A DNA stretch of 35,843 nucleotides. Origin: Sulfurimonadaceae bacterium (GTDB lineage: Bacteria > Campylobacterota > Campylobacteria > Campylobacterales > Sulfurimonadaceae). A program made the translations under genes and the position numbers. Positions 16,832 to 20,868 of the stretch are shown piece by piece. Below the pieces are notes generated by a model, which saw only the letters and a program-made list of their open reading frames with translations, did not search any database and had not been told where the DNA came from. The stretch lies in assembly GCA_041562555.1 (NCBI GenBank), contig JBFEXS010000008.1, positions 1 to 35,843 on the forward strand, in the 5' to 3' direction. How positions within the stretch are numbered: position 1 is the stretch's first letter; each line of letters opens with the position of its first letter.

Positions 16832-19039
16832 ATGTTTGATTTTTTCCGTAAACTCTTCAAGGCGTTAAATTCTTCAGGTAAGGCGTGGCAACTCTCCGTA
16901 GCGGTCATATTGGCAATGTTCGCTGGTTTTTTACCGGGTAGCTCACTGATTCTTTTTGATATTCTTTTTATTGCACTTGTACTTAATGTCAATTTTGGAT
17001 TATTCCTTCTATTCTCGGTGATTTTCTCGGGGATAGGTTATATCTTTGATCCCTTGTTTGAGTCTTTAGGGTATATGATCCTGACCAATGAGGCGTTCAA
17101 CGGACTGTTTACGATGATGTATAACTCGACATTGATCCGTTGGTCTTCTTTCAACTACACCCTGATTACCGGTTCTTTGGCAGTTTCTACTGTATTGGCT
17201 TTACCTATGTTCTTTATCCTGAATAAAATCGTGACACTGTATCGTGTGCAAATCGGACAAAAGCTGAATGAGTGGAAACTGACGCGCTGGATGAAACTCT
17301 TCAATGAAGAAGCAAAGTCAAGCGCACTCTTTCGCTGGTGGGGCTTGGGTGTCTTTGGTGCCCTGACAACGGCAATCGTACTTTTTTTGGTGTTGCTGTT
17401 TGATCCTTTGGCCAAAATGACCTTGGAAAAGACACTGTCATACAGCTTACAGACTGAAGTGACGATAAAAGAGTTCAGTTCTTCTTTAAGCGATCTCCGC
17501 ATCAAAATCAGCGGGGTTGAGATTGCAGACAGGGATAAATTGACGCATAACCTTGTAGAGTTTGACAGTATGGAGTTTGATCTCGGTCTTTCAGCTTTGA
17601 TGGAGAAAAAAACGATGATCGAAAAGCTGAGTTTGAATGCACTGGCCTTTGATCAACAACGGGAAAAAGCTGCCCATGCCTATGCTGCATCGGAAGAAGA
17701 AGCGACAAGGGAAGATGAAAAAGCGGAAGCCAAGAGCGAAGGCACTGATACAAGCTTCAGTATGCCTGATGTCGATGATATTTTGGCCAAAGAAGAGTTA
17801 CGCAGTATCAAAGAGGCTCAAGACTTCAAAGCAGATGTGGAACAGACCCAGAAAAAATGGGAAAGGATATCGAAAGAGCTTGAAGAATCCGATGATCTTG
17901 ATACGATTCAAGCTGATGCCAAAGCCCTTGAAAAACGACTTAAGGGTGCTTCGTTAAAGGATATCCTCGCAGCCAAAGGAGAAGTAGATACACTTAAGAA
18001 AAAAATTGATGCATTGAAGTCCAAGTATAAAACACTCAAACAGGAATACCGGGCAGACAAGGAGCGTCTCGCACTTAAAGCCTCAGAGCTTAAGGAGCTG
18101 CCGGATAAAGATATCAAGCGTCTTATGCAGAAGTACAGTCTGGATGCCAACGGCGGAGCAAATGTAATCAGTACCTTAGTGAATGATGAAGTTGCTTTAT
18201 ATCTAAAAAAGGCCGTAAAGTACTATAGCCTTGTAAAACCTTATCTCAACAGCAGCGCAGATACACAGGCAGAAGAAGAGACGATACCACCGCCTAGAGG
18301 CGTAGGAAGATGGATCCATTATACAGACCACTCAAAGATTCCGAGTCTTGTCATCAAAAAGGCTGAAGTGGGGATCATATTGGCAGAGGACAGGATACAT
18401 GTAAATATTCAGGACATCTCCTCTGATCAAAAGCTCTATGGAAAACCTATGGTCGCTCACGCCGATGCAAAAGGTGAAAAATATCGTTCCCTTGTCGCAA
18501 ACCTTGTGGATGACAGACGAACTAAGCAGGCAAAGAGCGAGTTTGAACTGAAGCTCAGAGATTACAGTGAAAAGAGTATAGAGATGAGCGGACTTACGAT
18601 GGATGAGAGTCTGATCAACGTCGATCTCAAGGGAGGAGTGGTGGATGGTATTATCAATGCCAAGAGTGATATGAACGTACGTAAAGCCAAGCTCACAATG
18701 GGATCGCAAAAGATGTTGAATACGATTTTGGAAAACATTCACAGTTTTAATGCGAACATAGCTGTCAGAGGTGACGTCTATGCACCGTCAATCAATGTCA
18801 AAAGCGATCTGGATAGACAACTTTCAACGGCGGTAAAATCCAAAGCGACAGCAGAGGCGAAGAAGTTTGAGAGAGAACTCAAATCAGGTGTTTTGAAGAG
18901 GGTAAATGATCAGACTGGTGGATTCAATACGAATCTTGGAGATATTGATTCACTACTGGATGGAAAAAATGATATGCTTTCGGGCATAAATTTGGACTTC
19001 TCGGCCAAAAAATCACTCAAAGGATTATTGCCATTTTAA
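16832..19039 (+). CDS. Fused TIGR03546 (membrane, DUF2062-like) + TIGR03545 (AsmA-like, coiled-coil) protein
   Basis: N-terminal KLFKALNS..WQL...FDPLFESLG...FNYTLITGS; then FRWWG-TM, RG.GRWIHY, C-terminal SINVKSDLD; TAAAAT at 16798-16803. Confidence 0.75.
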   Translation: MFDFFRKLFKALNSSGKAWQLSVAVILAMFAGFLPGSSLILFDILFIALVLNVNFGLFLLFSVIFSGIGYIFDPLFESLGYMILTNEAFNGLFTMMYNSTLIRWSSFNYTLITGSLAVSTVLALPMFFILNKIVTLYRVQIGQKLNEWKLTRWMKLFNEEAKSSALFRWWGLGVFGALTTAIVLFLVLLFDPLAKMTLEKTLSYSLQTEVTIKEFSSSLSDLRIKISGVEIADRDKLTHNLVEFDSMEFDLGLSALMEKKTMIEKLSLNALAFDQQREKAAHAYAASEEEATREDEKAEAKSEGTDTSFSMPDVDDILAKEELRSIKEAQDFKADVEQTQKKWERISKELEESDDLDTIQADAKALEKRLKGASLKDILAAKGEVDTLKKKIDALKSKYKTLKQEYRADKERLALKASELKELPDKDIKRLMQKYSLDANGGANVISTLVNDEVALYLKKAVKYYSLVKPYLNSSADTQAEEETIPPPRGVGRWIHYTDHSKIPSLVIKKAEVGIILAEDRIHVNIQDISSDQKLYGKPMVAHADAKGEKYRSLVANLVDDRRTKQAKSEFELKLRDYSEKSIEMSGLTMDESLINVDLKGGVVDGIINAKSDMNVRKAKLTMGSQKMLNTILENIHSFNANIAVRGDVYAPSINVKSDLDRQLSTAVKSKATAEAKKFERELKSGVLKRVNDQTGGFNTNLGDIDSLLDGKNDMLSGINLDFSAKKSLKGLLPF

Positions 19040-19251
19040 CGCCAGGAAAATATAAACATTATAAGGGACCGCTGTATGAGGTCATTGATATTGCAAAGCA
19101 TTCGGAGACGGAAGAAGAACATGTAGTATATAGAACCCTTTACGGGGACTTTTCTTTATGGATACGCCCCTTGAGTATGTTCATCGAAGAGGTGGAATAT
19201 GAGGGAAAGAAAGTCAAACGTTTTGAGTATATAGGAGAGATGAGTGAGTAG
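19033..19251 (+). CDS. DUF1653 domain protein, missed by the ORF track; no canonical start codon
   Basis: Frame reads (I)LTPGKYKHYKGPLYEVIDIAKHSETEEEHVVYRTLYGDFSLWIRPLSMFIEEVEYEGKKVKRFEYIGEMSE*, with the DUF1653 YxHYKG, HSET, VVY, WxRP..MF motifs. Start position uncertain (ATT 19033 or ACG 19039). Confidence 0.88.
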   Translation: MLTPGKYKHYKGPLYEVIDIAKHSETEEEHVVYRTLYGDFSLWIRPLSMFIEEVEYEGKKVKRFEYIGEMSE

Positions 19252-19579
19252 AGGGAAAAAACTGGATCTGAACATCGGTGCATCTTTTGAAGACGAATGG
19301 AATGTGGTGGAGGGAAAAAAGGTCTTAAGCAAGAAAGAACTGCTTCCTGCGGAAAAACATTTCCTTGTCTTCAAGTTTGAAAAACGAAAGGGAAAGCCTG
19401 TGACCCTAATCGGTCCGTTCCATATCAAAAAAGATGAGGCAAACGCACTGCTGAAAAAGGTGAAGAAATCCTTGGGCAGTGGGGGCGCATATAAGGATGA
19501 GTTTATGGAATTTCAAGGAGACTGCAAAGAGCGTCTGCGTGAGCTTTTTACCAAAGAGGGGTTTCGTTTCAAGAAATAG
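19244..19579 (+). CDS. Translation initiation factor SUI1/eIF1 family protein (YciH-like)
   Basis: EKRKGKPVTLIG, LKKVKKSLGSGGAYK, EFQGD; GTG start with AGGAG SD at 19233-19237. Confidence 0.88.
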   Translation: MSRGKKLDLNIGASFEDEWNVVEGKKVLSKKELLPAEKHFLVFKFEKRKGKPVTLIGPFHIKKDEANALLKKVKKSLGSGGAYKDEFMEFQGDCKERLRELFTKEGFRFKK

Positions 19580-19620
19580 GGAGTATCGTTCTGTTCTATT
19601 GCCGATGCATATATTTGGAT

Positions 19621-20868
19621 CTAGGCAGTCTGCATGAACCTATCTTCCGTGAGTTCGGATGAGATAACACGGTTTCTGCCTTTAGCCTTGGCTTCATAAA
19701 GGTTTTCATCTGCCTTGTGCAGGATATAGTCAGCTTTGGTGTTCTGATCGGCAAAAAGTGTTACGAGACCGATGGAGACAGTGACAGAACTGTCTACTTC
19801 ACTCTCTTTATGTTCGATACCAAGACTCTGTACTCTTTTTCGTAACTTCTCTGCCATCTTATGGGCTTTGATATGTTCGATATCTGCAATCAATATACCA
19901 AACTCTTCACCTCCGAGACGAAAGAGATAGTCCCCCGGACGCATAAGCGTCTCTTTCATTACGGTTGCCACTTGTTTAAGTGCCTTGTCTCCTTGTAAAT
20001 GTCCATAGCTGTCATTGTATCCCTTGAAAAAATCGACATCAAGCATCATGAAGGCGATAGATTTTCCCTCCCGTATGGAACGTGTCAGTTCACGGTTATA
20101 TACAAGGTTGAAATAGCGGCGATTGTATAGATCCGTCAAGGCATCTGTGATAGAAGCAGTTTCAAGGCGTTTATTGGCTACCTGGAGCTTCTTTGAAGCC
20201 TGAATCAATGAAGCTTCATTGTTCTGAATACTTTTAAAGATCGGTACAATGGTGATGACAGCAGCAGCGATAATGAAGACCAAGATTGCGAGGAGTTTAT
20301 AGTTTGTCTCATCATAGGTCTCGATAAGGTTCCTACGCTCAAACTGCGCGACTTGTTTCTCATATGTCAGGATGTTCTCGATGATTTGGTTGATGTGATG
20401 GATGTGACCAAGAAGCGAACTTGAGGAGAGTTTGCCAAGATGTTCTTTATCCAGTCTAAGAATGGCTGAGTTCAGACGTTTGAGATAATGGGCAGACTTT
20501 TCTATCTCTGAAGTGGCATAGTCAATATAAGCGGTTTCATAATCACGTTTGAAGTGTGATTTATAGGATGCCCAGTTTTTAAGGACCTCTTCACGGGCAC
20601 TGTTGATCGTGGCGGCAGCATTGGCAGGTGCGATATACTGATCCTTCAACTGATAAAATGCAGTTGTGACTTTTTTGTTGTAGGTGTTTTGGATATTGGT
20701 AAGTTCGGTAACAGGGATCAGGCTTCCAAAGTAGAGTGAATCAAGGTTCTGTTTCATCTTTTGCATATTAAAATAGCCAAGGGCTGCCGTGATGATCATA
20801 CCTGACAGAATCAAGGCCAGGAGCATATAGAGTTTCTGTTGTAAAGAGAGCGCATCCACAAGTTTCAT
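19621..20868 (-). CDS. Membrane diguanylate cyclase with periplasmic four-helix-bundle (4HB_MCP) sensor
   Basis: Two TMs flanking a helical sensor; TDALTDLYNRR, DVDFFKGYNDSYGH, I-site RPGD, GGEEF. Confidence 0.93.
   Translation of the reverse strand: MKLVDALSLQQKLYMLLALILSGMIITAALGYFNMQKMKQNLDSLYFGSLIPVTELTNIQNTYNKKVTTAFYQLKDQYIAPANAAATINSAREEVLKNWASYKSHFKRDYETAYIDYATSEIEKSAHYLKRLNSAILRLDKEHLGKLSSSSLLGHIHHINQIIENILTYEKQVAQFERRNLIETYDETNYKLLAILVFIIAAAVITIVPIFKSIQNNEASLIQASKKLQVANKRLETASITDALTDLYNRRYFNLVYNRELTRSIREGKSIAFMMLDVDFFKGYNDSYGHLQGDKALKQVATVMKETLMRPGDYLFRLGGEEFGILIADIEHIKAHKMAEKLRKRVQSLGIEHKESEVDSSVTVSIGLVTLFADQNTKADYILHKADENLYEAKAKGRNRVISSELTEDRFMQTA

Follow-up and report, generated by a model that had tools for sequence, protein, structure and literature searches.

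Translation initiation at AUU has been described in Escherichia coli for infC and pcnB, the only two confirmed AUU starts of that organism according to a preprint (10.1101/063800). The same text counts AUU among four near-cognate codons, working at 1–2% of AUG, and gives 0.1–1% of AUG or less for the non-near-cognate codons, which are two positions off AUG (10.1101/063800). We have found what is probably a comparable case in the window, by which we mean the whole stretch of 35,843 nucleotides (nt) analyzed here, a contig from the metagenome-assembled genome (MAG, 89% complete) of a marine Sulfurimonadaceae bacterium (Campylobacterales). It concerns a gene of the DUF1653 family, located between the gene of a 735-amino acid (aa) membrane protein and a SUI1/YciH-like gene. 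Judging from the comparison with its relatives, DUF1653 probably starts at AUU 19033–19035, coupled to the stop of the upstream gene and followed by the SUI1 gene, coupled in its turn. Like in infC and pcnB, AUU takes here the place of AUG, GUG or UUG, the Shine-Dalgarno sequence is normally spaced and the product is conserved and under selection. The differences are that sister lineages have exchanged the AUU for canonical codons, that its regulatory role is only possible, that the gene codes for DUF1653 and not for a translation factor or a poly(A) polymerase, and that the start is embedded in the stop region of the upstream gene. AUU-initiated genes are already known, and the DUF1653 case would add one more. 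A literature search joining the AUU start codon with Campylobacter found nothing.

The other elements of the locus also have described counterparts. For DUF1653 there is an uncharacterised crystal structure, PDB 3be3 from Bordetella bronchiseptica, with the same fold as the window protein according to our model, and DUF1653 genes elsewhere start with ATG, GTG or TTG, unlike the ATT of the window. The literature on the domain reportedly includes a proteomics study of Pseudomonas putida. Stop/start junctions of the types ATGA, GTGA and TTGA go with translational coupling, and the classic TTGA is seen in four sister sequences of our locus (L007, L010, L011 and L114). In the window the arrangement is alike but moved to ATT-TTA-A: its tetranucleotide TTAA is without a start codon, the preceding ATT would be the start, and the overlap is of 7 nt.

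A candidate AUU start for DUF1653

The features around the start of the gene are these:

19033..19251, + strand: putative DUF1653 coding sequence, 72 codons plus the TAG stop (full-length match to Pfam PF07866, dN/dS, fold)
19033..19035, + strand: ATT, candidate start codon of DUF1653 (codon -4; invariant in 13/13 start-less junctions)
19036..19038, + strand: TTA, codon 2 (Leu) of DUF1653 (TTG, GTG or ATG, and the start, in a derived sister clade)
19019..19024, + strand: Shine-Dalgarno-like AAAGGA, also coding for Lys-Gly of the upstream protein (from the sequence)
19037..19039, + strand: TAA stop of the upstream gene, inside ATT TTA A (from the sequence)
16832..19039, + strand: upstream gene, 735 aa, TIGR03546 + TIGR03545 membrane protein (open reading frame list, NCBIfam)

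No stop interrupts the reading frame between TGA 18970–18972 and TAG 19249–19251. The original prediction had seen a complete DUF1653 domain in the apparent gap 19040–19243, and this was borne out, since 19042–19251 matches Pfam PF07866 over profile positions 1–62 of 62 (E 1.6e-29), with 102.5 bits against a gathering cut-off of 23.5 that places the protein within the family. From TGA 18970 to the first motif, PGKYKHYKG, the frame contains no ATG, GTG or TTG, again as predicted; actually, all the statements about the sequence made at that time were correct on re-checking. Read in the DUF1653 frame, the junction is ...AGG ATT ATT GCC ATT TTA ACG CCA GGA, and the 3' end is GAG ATG AGT GAG TAG. 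AlphaFold modeled the protein as a small barrel, all beta except for one short helix (predicted local distance difference test, pLDDT, 95). Foldseek matched this model to 3be3_A/B with template modeling (TM) scores of 0.84–0.86 and E about 1e-5, and a sequence search of the PDB retrieved the same 3be3 (E 4.7e-7). The other PDB matches of the model, all with E > 0.3, were Tudor, SH3 and KOW-like small barrels (Mfd, CarD, EF-P/eIF5A, chromodomains), and these modeled likenesses are too weak to carry a functional assignment.

We compared the 146 DUF1653 loci of the Sulfurimonadaceae family and eight close metagenome contigs. The genus is represented by 17 genomes, the window's own included, and DUF1653 was present in 14 of them. 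The junction 'ATT TTA' without a canonical start was found in 13 distinct sequences, of which six came from these 14 genomes (the window, L002, L003, L004, L005 and L012) and seven from metagenome contigs (L113, L115, L116, L117, L118, L119 and L134); a further contig, L114, carries ATT TTG. Over the broader collection of 192 DUF1653 loci, a motif search placed the domain start in 154 and left 38 unscored. Among the 154, those without a canonical start were 16 ATT-TTA records (three duplicates included), L048, which is a spurious match of the regular expression, and L147, where the frame is truncated by the contig end. The contigs of three DNA runs from one study span 19019–19052 with zero letter differences, although this study may be the source of the assembly itself and is then not independent. 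Because ATT TTA recurs in the genomes of five other species and in seven metagenome contigs, the lack of a canonical start is, judged by these comparisons, not the result of a wrong assembly and not peculiar to the window genome. The alignment of the junction across relatives that had been proposed thus shows the ATT to be conserved (13/13 start-less junctions) and not a private mutation. The ACG overlapping the upstream stop, which had been put forward together with the ATT, did not fare as well: ACG 19039 occurs in the window alone, with AAA or AGA in its place in the remaining 12 sequences, and we have discarded it as a start. As a separate observation, a DUF1653 match with one in-frame TGA was reported for L070/G070:C133 (L110), a locus truncated by the contig end.

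The gene behind this junction is intact, as had been claimed, and appears to be used. Among the 13 ATT-TTA sequences the median proportion of nonsynonymous differences (pN) was 0.10 and that of synonymous differences (pS) 0.75, which is saturated. The median ratio of nonsynonymous to synonymous substitution rates (dN/dS) was 0.057, calculated from those pairs for which dS was finite (40 of 78), equally low as the 0.065 of the eight sister sequences with a canonical start, and the frames were unbroken in all ATT-TTA sequences. At the level of substitutions this is the mark of strong purifying selection on DUF1653 in the ATT-TTA lineages. A low pN over a saturated pS, with intact frames, is not what a loss of translation would look like, and so we take DUF1653 as a real, translated gene of 72 codons, with the same good but not complete confidence that we give to its start at 19033.

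To compare start positions, codons were counted upstream of the Gly of G-x-Y-x-H-Y-K-G, located at 19045 in the window. The 146 family loci start with GTG at -4 (75), ATG at -4 (3), ATG at -3 (33), TTG at -3 (15), GTG at -3 (2) or at other positions, further upstream or at -1 (12), and the remaining six, those of the six ATT-TTA genomes of the window's genus, have no canonical start. The 78 loci that start at -4 continue with Leu (53), Val (24) or Ile (1) at codon -3, and mostly with Lys (60) or Glu (15) at codon -2. ATT-TTA-AAA-GCA-GGA aligns codon for codon with GTG-CTT-AAA-GCA-GGx, and for this reason the ATT corresponds to the main start position of the family and the TTA to its conserved second residue, Leu. 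The proposal of ATT 19033 as a candidate start is in this way backed by comparative evidence from the genus (13/13 ATT) and from the family at large (GTG or ATG at -4 in 78/146). In the window and the 12 further sequences there is no in-frame ATG, GTG or TTG that would give the conserved N-terminus.

The conservation of the junction itself points in the same direction. From -48 to +30, ATTTTAA is the sole invariant block of 7 nt in the 13 ATT-TTA sequences, while only 5 of 59 third codon positions of the DUF1653 gene are invariant in the same set. The A of the ATT is the third base of a variable codon of the upstream gene, and this codon always ends in A (CCA in eight, TCA in four, TTA in one), when A-ending codons are unpreferred in this genome (CCA is 18% of Pro, TCA 28.5% of TCN Ser and TTA 11% of Leu). 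The ATT was kept in 13/13 sequences without a canonical next codon versus 2/8 sister sequences with one (L114 and L006). AAAGGA, AAAAAGG or AAAGGGG is retained in all 13 junctions. In the window, AAGGA (19020–19024) is followed by 8 nt and then by ATT 19033–19035, exactly as the original prediction had described. Of 260 distances from AAGGA to the start in this genome, 215 were 5–9 nt, with 28 at 8 nt and seven at 11 nt, so that the ATT has its Shine-Dalgarno sequence within the usual range and the TTA, at 11 nt, would be a rare case. The in-frame ATT 19024 and ATT 19027 were also considered as starts and rejected, since they are not conserved.

The upstream gene terminates CCA TTT TAA, and DUF1653 is in its -1 frame. 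The start and stop regions of both genes share 7 nt (A-TTT-TAA read as ATT-TTA-A), and the stop is also overlapped by ACG 19039–19041 in the TAACG noted before. The 735-aa protein matches TIGR03545 (E 7.4e-90) and TIGR03546 (E 1.7e-37), both over their cut-offs. As an observation on its own, TIGR03546 covers residues 6–154 and TIGR03545 residues 168–701; these are separately listed families, apparently fused here. With the DUF1653 start within the upstream stop region and the GTG of SUI1 8 nt inside DUF1653, the three genes are arranged as expected for coupled translation. We propose that AAAGGA and AUU 19033, 8 nt apart, would initiate DUF1653 where the upstream gene has its final sense codon and its stop, with the ribosomes that terminate 4 nt downstream probably helping initiation at the AUU. 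SUI1, with its own Shine-Dalgarno sequence and GTG, would probably be coupled only partly to DUF1653. Most likely the AUU sets a low level of translation, and a regulatory role is possible.

History of the start codon

We have reconstructed a maximum-likelihood tree of 25 sequences (about 1.1 kb, junction masked, outgroup-rooted). The 13 ATT-TTA sequences form the basal grade of the genus, and the eight canonical-start sequences are inside one derived clade (support 100/100). This clade also holds one of the ATT-TTA sequences, L012, as sister of L114 with its ATT TTG (support 100/99), and the tree requires at least two changes of the start state. The monophyly of the eight canonical sequences was rejected by the approximately unbiased (AU) test (p = 0.00032), for a group that was named after the tree had been seen. 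In six of the eight the ATT has decayed to CTT, GTT, ATC, GTC or AGA. Canonical starts are also found for five further proteins of 71 aa with 88–91% identity (P0003, P0004, P0007, P0008 and P0023).

The most economical reading of the tree suggests a history from GTG or ATG to ATT and then to a canonical start one codon on. In this genus the ancestral GTG or ATG at -4 would have become ATT without losing its function. On at least two later occasions the adjacent TTA would have changed to TTG, GTG or ATG. A change from TTA to TTG alters neither protein, as Leu remains Leu and the upstream stop goes from TAA to TGA. A canonical start could be gained thus one codon downstream, and the ATT would then have been free to decay. 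The opposite course, a TTG start lost through a change from TGA to TAA, was rejected, as the tree and the starts of the family show the ATT at -4 in the ancestral position and the TTG at -3 as derived.

Several points weigh against the AUU start and the history just described. The association between the loss of ATT and the gain of a canonical start amounts to two phylogenetically independent contrasts, with which a sign test is powerless; ATT-TTA is taken as the older state on the strength of an outgroup whose branch is long (0.98 changes per site), in a tree with several unsupported forks near its base. The sequences are related and their statistics are therefore weak. Both the A and the TT of the ATT are also within codons of the upstream gene, whose terminal Phe may explain part of the conservation. 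The infC of this genome (G000) has TTG and ATG start candidates and gives no independent sign of AUU use. Finally, the annotation at NCBI is suggestive and not consistent between sister genes: protein P0005 (sister MAG gene L004; 72 aa, MLKAGKY...) begins at the equivalent ATT, and P0002 (L002, 78 aa) at another ATT six codons further upstream. This upstream ATT was rejected as a start, being present in 8/13 sequences and overlapping the Shine-Dalgarno sequence itself.

The SUI1 neighbour and the alternative explanations

Two further features are found at the 3' end of DUF1653:

19244..19579, + strand: SUI1/YciH-like gene, 111 aa, GTG start (PF01253)
19233..19237, + strand: AGGAG Shine-Dalgarno sequence of SUI1, in the Ile-Gly-Glu codons of DUF1653 (6 nt ahead of the GTG)

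The SUI1 domain was recognized by PF01253 (E 5.2e-9, 36.9 bits against a cut-off of 25.5). The protein scored 57 bits with the YciH model TIGR01158, under its cut-off of 111.65, and four other models were also below theirs. With scores under the NCBIfam cut-offs, YciH equivalog status is unsupported, and the product looks like a divergent SUI1-domain protein. One article describes YciH as sharing the eIF1 fold and a basic loop facing the P site with the C-terminal domain of IF3 (PMC7114459). In the window, the SUI1 gene overlaps DUF1653 by 8 nt (19244–19251). The original prediction had placed its Shine-Dalgarno sequence and GTG in the last codons of DUF1653, and not only was this right but the overlap is conserved, as is the Y-I-G-E motif of DUF1653 that overlies the Shine-Dalgarno sequence. 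SUI1 is directly 3' of DUF1653 in 145/146 family loci (the exception is truncated by the contig end), typically starting 4–14 nt inside it. Searches with single-sequence phmmer found SUI1 beside DUF1653 in 44/192 loci, all of this family or its close metagenome relatives, and in 0/148 loci outside them (flanks of 800–1500 nt).

This dependence is, to judge from gene content, one-way only: among 353 family genomes SUI1 is found in 324 and DUF1653 in 147. In the six DUF1653-less genomes examined (L308–L313), SUI1 overlaps by 4 nt, or abuts, another upstream gene of ~280 aa. That gene is conserved (N-terminus ...LGLGIAGNFALHL...) and has a 534-aa open reading frame before it; SUI1 is packed tightly behind whichever gene precedes. 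A search for SUI1 in the three genomes of the genus without DUF1653 (G002, G003 and G016) gave no match. A complex prediction for SUI1 and DUF1653, from alignments of 33 rows, scored 0.00 against a mark of 0.32, which speaks neither for nor against a complex. The SUI1 genes of L012 and L114 have a common insertion of ~8 residues (..SSLAKESENGFEDDW..) near the N-terminus, and L005 a different one at the same place. On the other side a GGDEF diguanylate cyclase gene (19621–20868, - strand, 415 aa, TIGR00254 E 5e-45) converges on SUI1, with 41 nt between the stops.

The absence of a canonical start codon could be read in other ways. That DUF1653 is an untranslated, recent pseudogene left by the loss of its start codon we consider extremely unlikely. 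The 13 frames are diverged and intact, with a dN/dS of about 0.05 and saturated synonymous sites, the ATT-TTA state is spread over much of the genus tree, and an overlapping feature that could mimic selection was looked for with Rfam and RNAalifold and none was found. A programmed -1 frameshift at A-TTT-TAA would make of DUF1653 a C-terminal extension of the 735-aa protein. DUF1653 is indeed in the -1 frame, open for 11–39 codons before the Gly of the first motif, and a stop codon in the A site together with an upstream Shine-Dalgarno-like element can favour slippage. However, no heptamer of the form X XXY YYZ is conserved in the open -1 frame (the junction is CCA TTT TAA), tRNA-Phe could re-pair on AUU only at the cost of a mismatch at the first position, and a T at the free third codon position would make slippage much easier, yet it is an A that is invariant. 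The A7 run at 19007–19013 is not conserved either. RNAalifold on the 13 sequences gave four weak pairs, 0 compensatory, at -3.5 kcal/mol, so that a conserved downstream structure is missing, and an Rfam scan of 18700–19800 (E <= 1) had no match. Besides, DUF1653 stands alone with its own start in 140/146 family loci, and we hold the frameshift to be very unlikely. A further reading is a termination-reinitiation largely independent of the codon, in which the ribosomes ending at UAA would restart at UUA or at whichever codon is present, and not at the ATT. Each of the 13 ATT-TTA junctions is overlapped by the upstream stop, it is the TTA codon that has become TTG, GTG or ATG in the eight sisters, and low-level initiation at many codons was measured in E. 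coli (10.1101/063800). But UUA is two positions off AUG, thus in the class for which that text gives 0.1–1% of AUG or less, and would be 11 nt from its Shine-Dalgarno sequence, a spacing found in 7/260 cases. Reinitiation also leaves unexplained that the ATT occupies the GTG position of the family, with the TTA as its Leu-2, and that its invariance is limited to the sequences where the next codon is not canonical. All this makes it quite improbable, and initiation at AUU 19033 remains the explanation that we prefer.

The original prediction went one step further and saw in the locus a fidelity sensor, in which the eIF1-like product would tune its own synthesis through the AUU and the 8-nt overlap, in the way that IF3 acts on the AUU of infC. 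Such a feedback adds to the AUU start and does not replace it. The parallel with YciH and infC is that the gene with the SUI1 domain follows an AUU frame; the difference is that the AUU is on the upstream gene and not on the gene of the factor itself, and that the window protein is under the YciH cut-offs. The feedback would fit with an AUU start conserved under selection, with the fact that almost every family locus has the SUI1 start within the 3' end of DUF1653 and with the described likeness of YciH to eIF1 and to the C-terminal domain of IF3. The start of SUI1 was scored in 11 ATT-TTA sequences and is GTG in nine of them; it is ATG in all eight canonical-start sisters and in L014, so that both genes would have weaker starts in the basal grade, something else that speaks for the sensor. 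Against it, the same gene pair runs from GTG, ATG or TTG in 140/146 family loci, and within the genus the ATT was replaced at least two times by a canonical start with the operon otherwise unchanged. SUI1 is far more widespread than DUF1653 (324/353 genomes versus 147), follows another gene in the six DUF1653-less genomes and has a well-spaced Shine-Dalgarno sequence of its own. The NCBIfam YciH models, whose cut-offs the window protein does not reach, bear the name 'stress response translation initiation inhibitor'. A 2006 title by Lomakin reportedly speaks of 'reciprocal activities of eIF1, IF3 and YciH', and a 2015 work by Osterman is said, by its title, to consider E. coli YciH unlikely to act in initiation fidelity. 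The comparisons, made over gene order and start codons, do not favour the sensor loop, which we regard as unlikely. We likewise think it quite unlikely that the AUU of DUF1653 and the GUG of the eIF1-like gene form together an infC-like circuit, self-tuned through the discrimination of start codons.

Implications for the genus and the family

If DUF1653 starts at AUU as we propose, gene callers limited to ATG, GTG and TTG overlook it and leave a false 'intergenic' gap of 200 nt in its place, and this concerns six species of the genus or more. The junction would be a natural example of a start codon that migrates by one codon through a change silent in both overlapping frames. The adjacency of DUF1653 and SUI1 (145/146 family loci) is strict and provides a usable lead to the function of a domain whose structure has been solved. 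If the infC-like circuit were real, it would be a first for the bacterial SUI1 family, and DUF1653 would have its first functional link to translation; the feedback idea would then bear on the role of the bacterial homologues of eIF1.

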